Below, one piece after another: positions 1-59,334 of a stretch of DNA of 64,000 nucleotides. The DNA lies in contig NC_043003.1 of NCBI RefSeq assembly GCF_006345805.1, positions 72,354,001-72,418,000 on the forward strand. Direction: 5' to 3'. The stretch is from Octopus sinensis. Lineage: Eukaryota. The number at the start of each line of letters is the position of its first letter. The first letter of the stretch is position 1. Both the position numbers and the translations under genes were made by a program. The notes under the pieces are model-generated. The model was not told the origin of the DNA. It saw only the letters and a list, made by a program, of their open reading frames with translations, and did no database searches.

Positions 1-365
1 GTCACTGGTCTAATATCTGAATATGTCTCGTTGAGAGATTTAGGAACAACAATGTTTCGATTTATTAGATCAGTGGCTGTGAGTTACTTAAAAAATTATA
101 TATATTTTCGAACGGGCGTTTTGCAGCGCCGTCTCAGCCACGAAGTATAGTCTGTGCCGACGAAGGGAAATAATCCTGAAACCGTATGGTCCACAGATAC
201 GGCTTTGTTCTGGCTGGGGGTGCTAACCTCCCCTGTTCCCCAAAATATAAGGATACAGATTGTGAGTCGTGTAGCCAGCTGGATAAGATGTCTCCTGGGG
301 CAAGACAACAGTAGAATTTGCCCCTAAACAGGACTGCGACATTAGGTTGGTAAATAATCGTTACT
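1..365 (+). mobile_element. PLE-type terminal repeat (pLTR) fragment carrying a hammerhead, abutting (TA)n
   Basis: Contains a complete HHR at 145-200 and ends directly in a TA microsatellite, like the other pLTR pieces here. The element class is inferred from this. Confidence 0.55.
145..200 (+). ncRNA. Type I hammerhead ribozyme (U4C core variant)
   Basis: Stem I TCTGTG(151-156)/CACAGA(192-197). Core CCGACGA. Stem II AGGG/TCCT with loop AAATAA. GAAA. Stem III ACC-GTAT-GGT. GUC site with C191 as residue 17. Confidence 0.85.
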
Positions 366-6480: not shown

Positions 6481-6547
6481 TCGTTTGGGGGAAGACATAT
6501 GTAGATATGCATATACATTCCTACATTCATACATACATACATACATA

Positions 6548-6707
6548 CGCAGGAGTGGCTGTGTGGTAAGTTGCTTGCTAACCAACCACATGGTTCCGGG
6601 TTCAATCCCACTGCGTGGGATCTTGGGCAAGTGTCTTCTGCTATAGCCCCGGGCCGACCAATGCCTTGTGAGTGGATTTGGTAGACGGAAACTGAAAGAA
6701 GCCTGTC

Positions 6708-6757
<50 letters not shown>

Positions 6758-6963
6758 ATATGTTTGTTTGTCCCCCTAGCATCGCTTGACAACCGATGCT
6801 GGTGTGTTTACGTCCCCGTAACTTAGCGGTTCGGCAAAAGAGACCGATAGAATAAGTACTGGGCTTACAAAGAATAAGTCCCGGGGTCGATTTGCTCGAC
6901 TAAAGGCGGTGCTTCAGCATCGCCGCAGTCAAATGACTGAAACAAATAAAAGAGTAAAAGAGT
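6548..6963 (+). mobile_element. tRNA-derived SINE, family A, full length
   Basis: A box TGGCTGTGTGG, B box GGTTCAATCCC, internal (TA)n(TG)n, tail GACTGAAACAAATAAAAGAG. More than 10 copies occur in the window. Confidence 0.92.
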
Positions 6964-13348: not shown

Positions 13349-13496
13349 AATATAAGAGAGTGGTCACTATATGGCTCACTCTAGCACCAGTTAATCCAAA
13401 AGGTTTCAACCACAAAAATACATGTTCCCATGAAAGTCAGTACGATTGTTAGCTCACACGGACAGGGCAAATAAAAAATAACAAAAATACAGATTA

Positions 13497-13578
13497 TTTT
13501 GGGACAATTGTTTCGCTATTAATGAATTAAATGTAATTTTACTTACAAAAAAATCCACTTGTAGCTCCTCAGCCAAAA
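13497..13578 (-). ncRNA. Type I hammerhead ribozyme (inverted copy)
   Basis: Reverse complement of 14018-14099. Confidence 0.85.
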
Positions 13579-14017
13579 CTATCTGGATGAAATCCACTCA
13601 ATCACACGCCAGATTTTACCATAACGATAAATACGCGTGTGGTTCAATTGATTACATCCGACGTTATAATTCAAATGCTAGAGTGAGCCATATAGTGACC
13701 ACTCTCTTATATTTATTTTGTAAAAATATTATAATATATTATAAAATATTATAATAATCCAGGTTTCTCGGAGCACTAGGCCACTTGGTGTAGAATAGAT
13801 ATACTATTAAATTAGTATCTAATTCTCTCACCCTTATTAATTAATTATAATTATGCTGCATTTATTTCTAAATGCTGTATTTGTTTTCCGTGAAAATTTG
13901 GCGCGCTGTTAGTTGGGGCATTTGAATTATAATGTCGGATGTAATCAATTGAACCACACGCGTATTTATCGTTATGGTAAAATCTGGCGTGTGATTGAGT
14001 GGATTTCATCCAGATAG

Positions 14018-14099
14018 TTTTGGCTGAGGAGCTACAAGTGGATTTTTTTGTAAGTAAAATTACATTTAATTCATTAATAGCGAAACAATTGTCCCAAAA
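14018..14099 (+). ncRNA. Type I hammerhead ribozyme with long loop II
   Basis: TTTTGG-CTGAGGA-GCTA...TAGC-GAAA-CAATTG-TC-CCAAAA. Canonical core, palindromic stem III ACAATTGT, GUC site. Confidence 0.88.
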
Positions 14100-15051
14100 T
14101 AATCTGTATTTTTGTTATTTTTTATTTGCCCTGTCCGTGTGAGCTAACAATCGTACTGACTTTCATGGGAAACATGTATTTTTGTGGTTGAAACCTTTTG
14201 GATTAACTGGTGCTAGAGTGAGCCATATAGTGACCACTCTCTTATATTTATTTTGTAAAAATATTATAATATATTATAAAATATTATAATAATCCAGGTT
14301 TCTCGGAGCACTAGGCCACTTGGTGTAGAATAGATATACTATTAAATTAGTATCTAATTCTCTCACCCTTATTAATTAATTATATATATATATATATATT
14401 CTTTTATACGCTTCAGCCTTAAAGCTGTAGCGATACTGGGGCACCGCCTGTATATACATATTATATTCATGAATGTATATGTGTATACGAATGTGCATGT
14501 ATATACGAATGTATGTATAGCAGTTTGTGTGCCACCGTTAGTTTGATATTTACATACAAGTCCAAATAACCTTCACCATTTCAGTTTTAGTTCGATTTTT
14601 TTTTACTCCACGTCATTACTTTCTATTGCCCTGTTAGCATCTCTACACTTGATCCTCCGCTATCCGAAATCTGTTCAATCATTCTTTACACTGACCTCAC
14701 TTTATCTTTTTCTCTCTCATGCCTTTTGTCTCTCTCGCATTCTCTCCCTTCCTTCTCTCTCTATCTCTCTATCTCTCTCTCTCTCATACTTGCTCGCTCT
14801 CGCTCTCTATTTTTGAAGGTTTTATGTACGTTTTTATCTGTTCGTTATTTTTTAATTTCATGTCTGCTTTTATTTCTTCTTTCTCTGTTTATACATATTT
14901 TGTATATATTTTCTAAATGCTTTTTGTATATGGTTTCCAAAACAAATTGATACATGCAGGTTTGTGTGTATTTATGTGTACAGTTTAACGCTATTTTTGC
15001 TTTCTTAGTTAAGTCAGAAAAATAGCGTTAAACTGTACACATGAATACACA

Positions 15052-22135: not shown

Positions 22136-22184
<49 letters not shown>

Positions 22185-22185
<1 letters not shown>

Positions 22186-22610
22186 CTCTTTTCTTTTACT
22201 ATTTTACTTGTTTCAGTCATGTGACTGTGACCATGCTGGAGTACCGCCTTTAGTCGAAGAAATCGACCACAGGACTTATTCTTTGTAAGCCTAGTACTTA
22301 TTCTGTCAGTCTCTTTTGCTGAACTGCTAAGTTACGGGGACCTAAACACACCAGCATCGGTCGTCAAGCGATGTTGGGGGACAAACACAGAATCATAAAC
22401 ATATATACACACATACATATATATATTTATATATACACACATATATATGACGGGCGTCTTTCAGTTTCCATCTACTAAATCCACTTACAAGGCTTTGGTT
22501 GACCCGAGACTATAGTGGAAGACACTTGCCCAAGGTGCCACGCAGTGGGACTGAACCCAGAACCATGTGGTAGGTAAGCAAGCTACTTACCACACAGCCA
22601 CTCCTATGCC
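22185..22610 (-). mobile_element. SINE family A, full length
   Basis: Reverse complement match to 6548-6963. Confidence 0.92.
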
Positions 22611-22669
22611 TGTGTGCATATATTTATTTAGTTAGTTTCTGTATGCAGTGACCATCTAATTGAGACACA

Positions 22670-27849: not shown

Positions 27850-28500
27850 CATAAAAAATACAAAATGGGACAAGAACGCAAAACAACCAGACAGATGATG
27901 CAAAAAAGGGATAAAAAAAATTCCATATAGATGATACAAAGAAAACAAGGTCGTGTTATTCGGAGTTTTATTTCCTCGGTCGAGTTCCAGATTATCTTTG
28001 CAATTTCGGCTGGTTATACTCGAGATTGCTGCAATCTGGCCAGCCCCAAGGAAAAACCAAGCTAAGAGCATTAGATTGCCTGGAAGAAAGCAGCAAATGT
28101 ATACGTAAACAAGGACGGAATAAAATGGAGAATGTTACACAAATACAAATAACAGGACATAAAAAGAGGTGTCTTTCGACTAAGGACGAATTAAATTAAG
28201 ATGGCGTGTGTGGAAGTAAAGCTTAACGGCAGGGATACAAGATATTACAGGTTCGGGGAGGAATATAGATGTTGCATGGATGTCGACCGAACCAAGAAAG
28301 GTCAGCCTTGGCCGAATACCGGTCACGTGGGGAGAGAAGAGAGAGAGGTAGAGGCAGAGCGACAAAAGAAAGAGGGGCGAGAAAAGAAGATAGGAACACA
28401 GTGAAGCGAAAAGAAGGAAAGTGAGCATGAAGAGTAGGCAAGGAAATGTGAGAGAGGGGGATCAAAAGAACGAAAAGTTGAATGAACGAAGTAAGTATAT
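27850..28500 (-). mobile_element. Non-coding pLTR-like element containing a rearranged hammerhead-like module
   Basis: The minus strand reads pyrimidine tract, CGCCATCTT, structured module, T-rich tail, (TA)n. This is the same layout as the PLE end at 1280-2200. Confidence 0.55.
27971..28054 (-). ncRNA. Candidate non-circularly permuted hammerhead ribozyme (five-helix pseudoknot)
   Basis: Minus strand: A TTTCC/GGAAA; B GGCTGG/CCAGCC; C CCAGATT/AATCTGG; D GCAAT/ATTGC; E TCGAGT/ACTCGA. AUC lies at the D-E junction, GAAA follows B' and CCGA follows E'. Confidence 0.65.
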
Positions 28501-28551: not shown

Positions 28552-29783
28552 CAGGTAGGGAAGTAAAACTTTAATTAACAGTTACACTAATATTTCACAG
28601 CATCCGTTACATCTAATGATATGAAACCTAATGCAGAACAAAAAATACATTGTCAGCTAATGACGAAATCTTTTTTTTTTACAGGAATATTGGAGAATAT
28701 GACTGCGCCAAGGAGTATGTGATATGGTTCGTACACAAGTCGATCCGAGGAGGATCTCAAGCATAGTCGGAGTATCCTTACGTACAGTTTATAAAGTCAA
28801 GAAGAGAATGGACATGGGCAACGGCATTCAGAGAACGTCTGGCAACGATGGGACCAACAAGAAACGAAATCAAGACTTCATCAACACCCTCAAGTCCAAA
28901 ATTTCAACGGACCCAAGCACATCCGTGAGGAAACTGGCTTCTGAACTTTAAGTGAACCCCAAGACTATCAGAAAAGCTGTGAATGATGACTTGGGGCTCA
29001 CCAGGACACTGATACACATGTTGACAGAACCTATGAAGGCCAAGAGACCAGAGAGGTACAAAACGGTTCTCACATACCTCAAGAAGAACGGATCCACTGT
29101 GAAAATTTTCTCTGATGAGATCTTCACAGTGGCTGTCGTTGACAACCACAAAAACGACCTGTGCAGTGCATAGTCAACAGTTGACGTCAGCGGTACCTTG
29201 AGAACTAAACATCCAGCTCAGGTCATGGCCTTCGCTGTTGTGGCTTCCGACGGAAGAAAGATGTTCATCTACTTCTACAAGCCCGGAGAAAAGGTGGATG
29301 TTGACGCCTATTACAAGAAGTTGAGTTACCCTGTCTTGCATGGTTCAAGGCCAACTACCCGGAGCGCAACTATGTGTGGACCCACGATGGGATGGTGCTC
29401 TCAGCCATACTGCTTACTTTGCTGGTTTCTGGCCTGCGGACCTCTGGCCCTCTTCCAGCCCGGATCTCAAGCTTCTGGGCTATGCTATGTGGGAGCATTT
29501 TGGAGCACGCCACCAACAAAACCTCCCACCCCAACGTCAACTTTCTGAAAGCCGCCATCAATGAGGAGTGAACCAGGATGTCCAGTGACTTCGTGATGAA
29601 GAGTTGTGTGGGTTTTCGGGGCCATGTAGAGGCCGTAATTGTAAAGAATAGAAGCCACATAGAATAAATTATTCATTTTGTAATTATATGTAATTGTTAC
29701 TAACCTATTTTTGAATTACTAAACATTGCGCAATGGGAATTTCAAATGTTACAGCAATTTGGCAAGTTTTGATTCCCCACTAT
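28552..29783 (+). mobile_element. maT/DD37D-like Tc1-mariner transposon, decayed
   Basis: Imperfect TIRs CAGGTAGGGAAGTAAAACTT and AAGTTTTGATTCCCCACTAT. Motifs FSDEIFTV, TKHPAQVM and WPSSSPDLKLLGYAMW. Confidence 0.85.
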
Positions 29784-29784
29784 A

Positions 29785-30060
29785 TAAATCGACCCCAGGA
29801 CTTATTCTTTGTAAGCCTAGTACTTATTTTATCGGTCTCTTTTGCCAAACCGTTAGATTACGGGGTCGTAAATATACAAACAACATATACGACGTAAACA
29901 CACACACCTGTACAACGGGCTTCTATCAGTTTCCGTCTATCAAGTCCACTCACAAGGCTTTAGTCGGCCCGAGGCTATAGTAGAGGACACTTGCCTAAGG
30001 TGCCACGGAAGGGATTGAACCCGGAACTATGTGGTCGGAATTCAACCTTCTTACCATATA
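29785..30060 (-). mobile_element. SINE family A, partial
   Basis: Reverse complement match. Confidence 0.85.
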
Positions 30061-31746: not shown

Positions 31747-32655
31747 TCAGGTTGAGTAAAAAGTAGGCAACGTTTTGAACCATGTGTACCGTATAGAACA
31801 TACATCGTAAGACTGCATCGGATAGAAGTGGCTACGAGAGCTGAAGTGGAAAGGGCTCTGCGACCCATTTGGAAAGAGGTGGTCAGCTCGAAAATGTTTT
31901 AAACGATTTCATAGTGGAGGCCTAAAGGTCGTGAGCGTAGTGGACACCCATCTGTTATTGATGACAGTCAATTAAAGACCGTCATTGAAAAAGATCCACG
32001 AAAAACCACCCGAGAACTAGCAAAAGAACTTCAAGTTAGCCAGAAAACTGCCTGCTTCTATTTGCATGTGATCAGAGAATCAAAACAGCTCAACAAATAG
32101 GTATCACATGATTTGAATGAAAATCAGAAAATGCGCAGATATGAAATTTGCTCGTTGCCTCTCCGTAACCAGATCGATCCATTTTTCGATCGTACTGTAA
32201 GTTGTGATTAAAAGTGGATTCTGTATAATAAAAAAAAAACGTTCTTCGCTGTGGTTAGACCAAAATTAAGCACAGAAAACCTTCCCTAAACAATGCTCGA
32301 CCACACGTTTCACTAATGACACTCCAGAAGTTGAGGGAACTTGGATACGAAGTTCTTCCCCACCCAGTTTATTCCCCAGACCTTTCTCTTACCGACTACC
32401 ATTTTTTCAAGCACCTTGATGGTTTCCTGCGAGAGGAGTTCAAAAATCAAACTGATTCTGAAAGTGCATTCAAAGAGTTCATCAGCTCCAGAACTCCAGA
32501 TTTTTATGTTACCAGAATAAACAAACTTGTAACTCGTTGGCAAAAATGCGTTGATTATAATGGCACTTATTTTGGTGAATAAAATTTCCGCATTGTTGAA
32601 ATATATTGCGATGAATTTTATGTTTCAAAACGCTGCTTACTTTTACTCAGCCTGT
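31747..32655 (+). mobile_element. Internally deleted mariner with TIRs
   Basis: TIRs TCAGGTTGAGTAAAAAGTAGGCAACGTTTTGAA and its inverse. LPHPVYSPDLSLTDYHFF. Confidence 0.92.
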
Positions 32656-32925: not shown

Positions 32926-33109
32926 ATATATATAAATATGAGAGAGAGATTAGTATAAACACAAATGTATATTATAGTTCCTACGTGTGTTTCACTATTA
33001 TGACTGTTTGGAGCATGTGTTCCAGTTGTGTTTAGATGTTCAACGACAATGGCTTATTTGGGAGCAGTTAACAGTTTATTGCATTAAGTTACAGATAACT
33101 ATATATATA

Positions 33110-33480
33110 TTCTTCTATTATTTTACATGTTTCGGTCATTTGACTGCAGCCATGCTGGAGCACCGCCTTTAGTCGAACAAGTCGACGCCAAGACTTATTC
33201 TTTGTAAGCCTAGTACATATTCTATCGGTTCTTTTGCCGAACCGCTAAGTTGCAGGGACGTAAATACACTAGCATCGGTTGTCAAGCGATGGTGAGGGGA
33301 CAAACGCAGACCCACAAACATACACACACACATACATGTATATATATATGTGAAAGGCTTCTTTCAGTTTCAGTCTACCAAATCCACTTACAACGCTTTG
33401 GTCGGCCCGAAGCTATAGTAGAAGACACTTGCCCAAGGTGCCACGCTGTGAGACTGAACCCAGAACCATGTGGTTAGTAA
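33110..33480 (-). mobile_element. SINE family A
   Basis: Reverse complement match. Confidence 0.9.
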
Positions 33481-50411: not shown

Positions 50412-50812
50412 CGTAGGAGTGGCTGTGTGGTAAGTAGCTTGCTTACCAACCACATGGTTCGGGTTCAGTCCCACTGCGTGGCATCTTGGGCAAGTGTCTT
50501 CTACTATAGCCTCGGGCCGATCAAAGCCTTGTGAGTGGATTTGGTAGACGGAAACTGAAAGAAGCCTGTCGTATATATGTATATATATATATGTGTGTGT
50601 GTCTGTGTTTGTCCCCCCCCCAACATCGCTTGACAACCGATGCTAGTGTGTTTGCATCCCTGTAACTTAGCGGTTCGGCAAAAGAGATCGAAAGAATAAG
50701 TACTAGGCTTACAAAGAATAATCCCTGGGGTCGATTTGCTCGACTAAAGGCGCTGCTCCAGCATGGCCGCAGTGAAATTATGAAACAAGTATCAGAATAA
50801 AAGAATAAAGGA
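49866..50812 (+). mobile_element. Two head-to-tail SINE family A copies (49866-50325, 50410-50812) separated by (TA)n
   Basis: Both match 6548-6963. Confidence 0.92.
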
Positions 50813-50980
50813 ATATATATATATACATACATCCACATATATACATATATACGTACATGAGTACAGACAGACAGTCGGACAGACAGATTGATAGCTAGAC
50901 GTAGCTATTTCGATTTATAGGTATATGTATATGCATAGAAACACATTCATATATACTCACACATACACTCAGTTATTCAC

Positions 50981-58566: not shown

Positions 58567-59163
58567 CGCACATACGACAGGCGCCTTTCAGTTACCGTCT
58601 ATCAAACCCACTCACAAGGCTTTTGATCGGCCCGTAGTATAGAGTAAAAGGCACTTGCTCAGTGGGACTGAGAACTGAACCCAGAACCATGTGGTTAGAA
58701 AACAAGCTTCTTACCACAGAGACACGCCTGCGCCTTATACACACACACACACACACATATACACCACTCCGTCGGTTACGAAGAGGAGGTTTCCAGGTGC
58801 AGGAGTGGCTGCTGTTTGGTAAGTAGCTTGCTTACCAACAACATGGCTCCGGGTTGAGCCCCACTGCGTGGCACCTTGGGCAAGTGTCTTCTACTATAGC
58901 CTCGGACCGACCAAATCCTTGTGAGTGGATTTGGTAGACGGAAACTGAATGAAGTCCGTCGTATATATATGAACCCTCACCATCGGTTAACAACCCATGT
59001 TGGCGTGTTTGCTTCTCCATAACTTAGTGGTTTGACAAAAAACACCGATAGAATAAGTACTAGACTTACAAAGAATAAGTCCTGGGATCGATTTTGTCGA
59101 CTAAAAGCGGTGCTCCAGCATGGCCACAGTCAAATGACTGAAACAAATAAAAGGATAAAAGAA
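57995..59163. mobile_element. SINE cluster: family C (57995-58198 -), D-like (58205-58520 -), A 5' half (58570-58735 -), A full length (58797-59163 +)
   Basis: Matches to the other copies in the window. Confidence 0.85.
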
Positions 59164-59334
59164 TATATACAGGGATGGCCAAAAGTCACCCGACAGTAAA
59201 TCAAAATCTCTTACATACTATCTGTAATTGACTCGAATGGAAAATATGTCGTTCAAGAAGGACTTCAGTTTGAACAATTTTCATGATGTTTGATATGCAG
59301 ATGCTTTTACTAAATTCATTCATTTGTAAACAGG

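Follow-up and report, generated by a model that had tools for sequence, protein, structure and literature searches.

We analysed a 64,000-nt stretch of the Octopus sinensis genome (RefSeq assembly GCF_006345805.1, contig NC_043003.1, positions 72,354,001 to 72,418,000 of the forward strand; hereafter the window), which carries on its minus strand a copy of a structured RNA in a dispersed repeat that we call family A. The sequence evidence makes it probable that this locus is a decayed non-coding retro-repeat of the Penelope/Naiad type, whose intact relatives likely encode a self-cleaving hammerhead with the pseudoknotted strand order of the SGC/CSG class, opened between A9 and G10.1. These relatives are predicted to cut themselves. 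Judged by its letters, the feature is real, and what is new in it is a hammerhead opening inside a block presumed unbreakable, in an otherwise SGC/CSG strand order.

A first-pass annotation had proposed a rearranged hammerhead at 27971-28054 (minus strand), composed of five helices. The 84 nt that it quoted were found there letter for letter, and all five helices can be read from the sequence (5+6+7+5+6 = 29 Watson-Crick pairs). Four of them correspond to the three hammerhead stems, I to III, and to a helix bracing stems I and II, whereas the fifth, helix A, is not conserved. Since the five helices cross one another, a nested fold shows only some of them; the minimum free energy (MFE) of the 84 nt is -29.8 kcal/mol (z = -3.78), and none of 200 shuffles was equally stable. 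The proposed boundaries enclose the core of the fold but cut away conserved strands on both sides, two at 28076-28089 and one at 27967-27972. With these strands the fold reaches 28089 and contains two more helices, X and P0, inserted between A9 and G10.1 as a four-way junction. The full strand order is X′-P0-II-C-III′-UH-I-II′-GAAA-III-C′-I′-CUGAnGA-X, in which C denotes the brace helix. The 5′ strand of stem II lies 66 nt upstream of CUGAnGA; X, not stem II, directly follows A9, and a kink-turn-like loop connects stem III to the brace helix. A descriptor of this order (stem II 5′ strand, III′-UH-I, II′-GAAA-III, I′-CYGAnGA) matched the window at this single site and had no match in 60 dinucleotide shuffles of the window.

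The fold has a free-N7 CUGAnGA beside stem I, GAAA between stems II and III, the A15.1-U16.1 pair and an NUH triplet, and the three stems, I to III, have covariation behind them, as expected of a hammerhead; what it lacks is stem II directly after CUGAnGA (with at most 1-2 inserted nt). Likewise, it shares with types SGC and CSG the cyclic order C-S-G, a short linker between stems I and II and the brace helix, but not the three uninterrupted blocks, as block C is split in all seven sequence variants that we compared. By analogy with known hammerheads, the cut proposed earlier, after 28024 (AUC), is placed correctly. A minimal type I reading of the 3′ half, made of the core strand and a local hairpin, was rejected, with 10.1/11.1 and 15.1/16.1 unpaired. 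No Rfam hammerhead model matched at E <= 10 in window positions 27900-28250 or on a young copy, and the best 150 of the 249 Rfam matches in the window were microsatellite-driven microRNA models and similar.

We built a consensus from genomic copies, as the first-pass annotation had advised, and compared seven variants: family A, its subfamily A′, families B, C, D and E (found by scanning fetched loci) and the tail of Naiad elements. The structure is conserved among them while the letters differ, and this covariation supports the identification as a non-circularly rearranged hammerhead, a predicted ribozyme. By majority, all seven keep CUGAnGA and GAAA, with n being G, A, C or U; G10.1-C11.1 and A15.1-U16.1 are invariant, and H17 is C, A or U but never G (triplets AUC, GUC, AUA, GUU and GUA). 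Among 67 distinct family A copies, position 4 of the core strand is U in 50 and C in 16, the latter being over-counted because half of the loci were chosen with the window's C; N7 is G in 51, A in 11, C in 3 and U in 1, while G8 is kept in 63 and A9 in 66. Subfamily A′, with 13 exact matches, has stem III changed on both sides, a GUC site and mostly C or U at N7. The most intact folds were found in the youngest families, C and B. Family C (708-nt arrays) gave 40 of 40 scored matches at 100% identity, and 10 of 10 distinct copies keep the core; family B (795-nt arrays) is 98-100% identical, and 15 of 15 distinct copies keep it. Family D (908-nt arrays) and family E show 96-100% and 85-89% identity, respectively. 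In a kink-turn, two helices flank a 3-nt bulge that is followed by tandem G-A / A-G pairs; in A, A′, C, E and the Naiad tail, the letters of the loop between stem III and the brace helix agree with this rule.

Helices X and P0 were recognised by comparing family A with the Naiad tail. Across six helices and seven variants, the family-majority strands form 187 of 189 pairs, a figure inflated because registers were picked per family to maximise pairing and the anchors favour intact copies; when strands were swapped between families, 669 of 1134 (59%) paired. A MAFFT alignment of six real copies, which are related and from one of which the structure was derived, gave 91.4% of 221 cells paired, with 18 of 38 pairs changed on both sides. 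None of 500 shuffles reached this value, and slid controls gave 26-51%. Moreover, the upstream 62 nt were shuffled 3000 times and the shuffles reaching the X+P0 score were counted: 0 in A, 0 in A′, 1 in B, 0 in C, 6 in D, 39 in E and 45 in the window copy, and 3, 5, 8 and 12 in four Naiad-tail copies. In A, A′, D, E and the Naiad tail the four-way junction is perfect, with X and P0 abutting stem II and the core without an unpaired base.

Family A is dispersed in the source genome (2.7 Gb), where a first look returned 275 candidates when the fold was sought and 2448 when the upstream body was, with 40 matches scored in each case. Its unit of ~750 nt has a pyrimidine-rich body, the structured RNA near its 3′ end and a (TA)n tract after it. 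The copies share a common 3′ end followed by (TA)n, have scattered 5′ starts, and often have upstream of them a partial copy in head-to-tail or inverted orientation. This anatomy supports the earlier assignment of the host repeat to the Penelope-like element (PLE) type and not to a DNA transposon. In a DNA-like public run at 85% likeness, depth was 40 on unique flank and ~1.0 million on the fold, a ratio that is not a copy number; the data point to tens of thousands of fold copies, sister families included. The GUC-GAAA-GAC hairpin that the first-pass annotation had noticed lies in the repeat body and is intact in 35 of 57 family A copies. The YY1-like CGCCATCTT noticed with it is indeed present at 28198-28206, but as it occurs in 1 of 51 copies, that of the window, it is a private mutation.

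The same fold with different letters ends the published Naiad_Ovul and Naiad_Obim consensus sequences (PMC8557442; here and below, published work is cited from the accessible portions of each source). The Naiad tail gave 655 matches in the source genome, and at locus L093 it is joined to the C-terminus of the Naiad open reading frame (ORF). Ten CUGAUGA passages (31-40 of 62) of the supplement to PMC8557442 were parsed by eye; among those listed, one further record shares the four-way form and another is split more loosely, and two records that directly precede Naiad_Hcon and Naiad_Hpol hold an unsplit type-CSG hammerhead whose stems all pair. Family A shares with Naiads (TA)n insertion, partial tandems, inverted 5′ copies and 5′ truncation. 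As in retrozymes, it is a non-coding tandem repeat (in partial tandems) with one ribozyme-like fold per unit, although that fold is not a type I hammerhead. The first-pass annotation had advised a search for a reverse transcriptase (RT)/GIY-YIG frame upstream of longer copies. No such frame was found at 60 family A loci, including the Naiad form with an N-terminal GIY-YIG and an RT with DKA, nor was any frame of >=110 aa a convincing coding frame of the unit; the Naiad ORF occurred only with the separate Naiad-tail family. A Naiad motif pattern gave 6 matches, all non-coding; another pattern picked up a single Naiad remnant, interrupted, with its tail beyond the 8 kb examined. An RT remnant downstream of the repeat in L008 was rejected as a partner of family A and taken as another element, as it has a DKG motif and no Pfam match; it is a canonical-type PLE RT next to a family A copy.

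The missing coding partner leaves the Naiad link of family A to rest on fold and anatomy, and it raises the question of whether a long interspersed nuclear element (LINE), rather than a Naiad PLE, mobilised the repeat around a real ribozyme. Cephalopod Naiads have been described as long-inactive remnants (PMC8557442), yet copies of families B and C are nearly identical, which would suit such a mobiliser. On the other side stand hallmarks of Naiads and other PLEs, namely insertion into (TA)n, head-to-tail tandems that are partial, and inverted 5′ pieces, and the Naiad tail has the same fold. We regard mobilisation by a LINE as unlikely; it would alter the mobiliser and leave the RNA unchanged.

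Some other observations were made on these repeats. Several type I hammerheads of other PLE families lie beside family A copies or pattern matches (L008, L010, L013, L029 and L078). The tail between tandem units (L002:930-990 and other junctions) holds an ATGGCGGC word, and a GTAAGT word just before (TA)n, which may represent a promoter element and a splice donor of the kind present in other pseudo-long terminal repeats (pseudo-LTRs) of PLEs. At L123:1549-1593, contigs of a sister variant in run X12 reached a depth of ~60,000 over the core against ~300 elsewhere, and three runs show a 23-nt insertion in the P0 loop.

We infer that an intact copy would fold into an active hammerhead core and cleave after H17, and that the RNA would then circularise and be copied by a Naiad-like enzyme. 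The four-way junction would hold A9 in its stack on G10.1-C11.1 although no backbone joins them. The kink-turn-like loop would fold stem III back towards the brace helix. During transcription P0 is likely the first to form, and its 3′ strand would thereby be kept from pairing with the core. One cleavage per tandem unit would release a unit-length RNA, which would then be joined into a circle. A Naiad-like RT/endonuclease acting in trans may copy this circle from a fixed 3′ start into (TA)n targets, and such copying is proposed to leave 5′-truncated, more-than-unit and inverted copies. The A9/G10.1 step is a known insertion-tolerant point in viroid and PLE hammerheads (PMC3705267, PMC4209133), and hammerheads of types SGC and CSG cleave in vitro at 0.004-0.19 per min (PMC10085705). 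A break at this step is plausible because single-base insertions are tolerated there and these types are active.

Several observations weigh against cleavage by a hammerhead split in this way. In family C, whose start set was chosen solely by sequence downstream of the cut (29 rows, one being an internal break), 0 of 28 true 5′ starts lie at the predicted cut, with one at +5 and one at +20. In family A no start falls at position 0 among 92 starts, a biased sample. Moreover, 27 of 29 family C rows end at +140. Of the 28 copies, 26 extend through the cut, indicating that the template was continuous there, as a religated circle or equally an uncut transcript would be. Activity can drop in known hammerheads with one base inserted at A9/G10.1, and the literature searched contained neither a natural nor an engineered break at this step. 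The variants A, A′, B, C and E are related to one another. Helix X is weak in the Naiad tail (68% of cells paired), and three of seven Naiad-tail copies gave no X+P0 signal (600, 930 and 1810 of 3000). The junction has an extra 2-bp stem in B and a U-U mismatch in C, and the kink-turn-like loop departs from the standard in B and D and is broken in the window copy. In a well-preserved family A copy, nested folding left G5, G8 and A9 unpaired at only 0.06-0.10, and it gave alternative folds in B, C and D; nested folding is unable to score stems I and II together with the remaining helices. In family B, four independent copies with different flanks (L118, L130, L132 and L138) start at +19, the last A of GAAA, which could be due to an RT stop or microhomology. 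The 23 public runs examined are all assembled contigs. In three runs presumed to be RNA, the repeat is covered at 85% likeness and most of the unique flank is not; one contig goes once round the family B unit, as tandem DNA would also allow. Neither observation was used as evidence.

The lack of a pile-up of starts at the cut, and the many copies running across it, would also suit a fold that is kept by selection and no longer cuts, serving as a hammerhead-derived protein-binding site for RT recruitment or as a kink-turn bound by an L7Ae-family protein. Naiads have also been reported to proliferate without canonical hammerheads (PMC8557442). However, all catalytic positions are kept despite different helix letters, with only N7 and H17 varying; a binding site would have no need to avoid G at H17, and the unsplit sister form matches a cleaving type. 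We therefore consider a non-cutting binding site distinctly unlikely and favour the self-cleaving hammerhead.

We also weighed how the molecule is closed. The first-pass annotation had taken helix A as a structural helix, and had suggested that UUGG could pair with CCGA to extend it and mask the core in an OFF conformation. This pairing is real, belongs to the MFE structure of the window copy and is seen in the main family, but it is not conserved in all variants. Helix A uses N7, G8 and A9 while N7 changes freely, without a change in its partner, so it is not a conserved structure; the best pairing of this type, measured in the window, A, A′, B, C and D, has 6-8 bp in the window, A, B and C and 3 bp in A′ and D. 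The conserved closure, as the variants indicate, is X plus P0. In family A the 3′ strand of P0 is complementary to both its 5′ strand and the core, and nested folding prefers the core-masking form for two copies, that of the window and a good one of family A. This preference, a possible 7-8 bp helix from N7 in A, B and C (G-U allowed) and an A at the would-be upstream A9 in 5 of 67 copies would fit a molecule closed by helix A, either as an insertion at N7, where the upstream strand provides G8 and A9, or as an OFF switch that is conserved and masks the core. Yet that upstream position is G in 60 of 67 copies, the downstream strand holds a full CUGAnGA with a free N7, X+P0 is backed by shuffles in all seven variants, and a published variant with an insertion after A6 had low activity. 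Closure by helix A is thus very improbable, and closure by X and P0 is preferred. In family A, a downstream hairpin is a possible alternative partner of X.

The window copy has four lesions: U4C, a G-to-C change in the kink-turn-like loop, one mismatch in X and one in P0. In four public runs the majority letters at 27978, 28031, 27970 and 28078 are those of the family, not of the window. With U4C, three broken pairs or contacts and a core that folding models trap in the OFF pairing, this copy is probably dead. Hardly any weight is left for chance pairing or a terminal repeat of a neighbouring DNA transposon, to which a decayed Tc1/mariner-like frame 650 nt away (28703-29600) might point: no shuffle matched the descriptor, the transposase remnant is absent from other loci, whose matches stop near 28498, the copies are fixed at one end and lack terminal inverted repeats, and covariation and anatomy already refute it. 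The parts of the copy, and the pieces of a further repeat in the window, are listed below.

Table 1. Features of the repeat copy and its predicted ribozyme fold, and pieces of a SINE-like (short interspersed nuclear element-like) repeat, in window coordinates.
Feature	Position	Strand	Remark
5′-truncated copy of the non-coding ~750-nt repeat unit (family A)	27855..28498	-	unit positions 53-657 of the reference copy
GUC-GAAA-GAC hairpin in repeat body	28171..28180	-	outside the ribozyme fold
X′ strand	28084..28089	-	5′ strand of the helix closing the molecule; its partner is the bases right after A9
P0 5′ strand	28076..28083	-	one C-C mismatch in the window copy
P0 3′ strand	28046..28053	-	runs straight into G10.1; paired with the core in the first-pass annotation (helix A / OFF)
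Stem II 5′ strand	28040..28045	-	begins at G10.1
Brace helix C 5′ strand	28033..28039	-	stem I/II interaction helix of type-SGC hammerheads
Short strand of kink-turn-like loop	28030..28032	-	GCA in the window, GGA in 57/67 copies
Stem III 5′ strand with U16.1 and C17	28024..28029	-	predicted cut 3′ of 28024 (AUC)
Stem I 5′ strand	28018..28023	-
4-nt linker from stem I to stem II	28014..28017	-	typically 3 nt in type SGC
Block G: stem II 3′ strand, GAAA, stem III 3′ strand	28000..28013	-
3-nt bulge and GA-U strand of kink-turn-like loop	27994..27999	-	by the kink-turn rule
Brace helix C 3′ strand	27987..27993	-
Stem I 3′ strand and core strand	27973..27985	-	CCGAGGA in the window, CUGAnGA in the family
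X strand	27967..27972	-	directly after A9; one mismatch in the window copy
SINE-like repeat pieces	6529-6961, 22183-22630, 29786-30056, 33100-33480, 50415-50823, 58801-59165 and others

Elsewhere in the window, positions 150-197 (plus strand) carry a classic type I hammerhead of a family other than A, with a U4C core, paired stems I-III and a GUC site. The Tc1/mariner-like frame (plus strand) encodes a decayed transposase, interrupted by stops and a frameshift, with an HTH_29 match (E 5.5e-5) that falls below the curated cut-off; the frame is a neighbour separate from the repeat, and a second mariner-like remnant lies at 31915-32582. At 13355-14384, a 325-nt segment stands in inverted repeat at 99% identity, together with a 91-nt exact duplication; the inverted segment looks like a recent fold-back or an assembly artefact. 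The SINE-like repeat is ~400 nt long, with at least 10 pieces in the window that are 70-90% alike. No tRNA gene was called in the window.

The closest known systems are the type-SGC and type-CSG hammerheads (Eckert et al. 2023, PMC10085705), with which the fold shares the cyclic block order C-S-G, the core bases, a size of ~80 nt, the short stem I-II linker and a helix bracing stems I and II. In contrast to these, block C is interrupted here and the RNA ends lie in the inserted X+P0 junction, and stem III and the brace helix are joined on both strands by the kink-turn-like loop; the word 'kink' is absent from the text and supplement text of that paper, its figures and alignments lying outside this search. 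The published examples were found beside hairpin ribozymes in metatranscriptomes, whereas the present fold sits in a repeat of an animal genome. Type CSG was published from only two sequences, and six hammerhead wirings were counted on the assumption that blocks are uninterruptible (PMC10085705).

Naiad PLEs (Craig et al. 2021, PMC8557442) share with family A the (TA)n targets, partial tandems and inverted 5′ copies. They were reported without canonical hammerheads, with Naiad_Ovul flagged 'HHR_half_core', whereas family A has no ORF and is linked to them by fold and anatomy. Animal non-LTR retrozymes, thought to derive from PLE pseudo-LTRs and to move via circular RNA, likewise have non-coding tandem units with one ribozyme each and low GC (PMC7229834; bioRxiv 10.64898/2026.07.22.740005). 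Unlike the repeats described here, which have units of 700-900 nt with a predicted pseudoknotted split hammerhead, retrozymes carry type I hammerheads in units of ~150-450 nt. The minimal type I hammerheads of PLE pseudo-LTRs, likewise placed towards the 3′ end (Cervera and de la Pena 2014, PMC4209133), share with the fold an insertion at the A9/G10.1 step, as does the chrysanthemum chlorotic mottle viroid hammerhead with its extra A10 (PMC3705267). Those insertions are of one nucleotide, in hammerheads with a minimal stem III that are active as dimers, whereas the present fold has a complete stem III and, as its insertion, two helices that hold the RNA ends. In the literature searched, which mostly excluded subscription journals and the supplement figures of Eckert et al., no split form and no Naiad ribozyme was found. 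Judged from sequence, the element would work like a type-SGC/CSG hammerhead, and it sits in the genome like a retrozyme.

On balance, we lean towards a joint reading in which this fold is a seventh natural hammerhead wiring, with its catalytic strand opened at A9/G10.1 and held by a four-way junction. The kink-turn brace could put cleavage under a host kink-turn-binding protein. The fold would be the general ribozyme of Naiads and of their non-coding passengers, and a true circular permutation of the unsplit type-CSG form of other Naiads, by a path traceable within one element family. Every descriptor in use would then have overlooked tens of thousands of animal hammerheads. As for the window copy, it is no more than a worn example of the fold. 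If its relatives cleave, the published limit of six hammerhead wirings would be broken, and a hammerhead with both ends exiting from its core would offer a new attachment point for aptamers or switches. Cleavage would also place non-circularly permuted hammerheads in animal genomes in thousands of copies, and would explain the apparent lack of ribozymes in Naiads, a very successful PLE clade.
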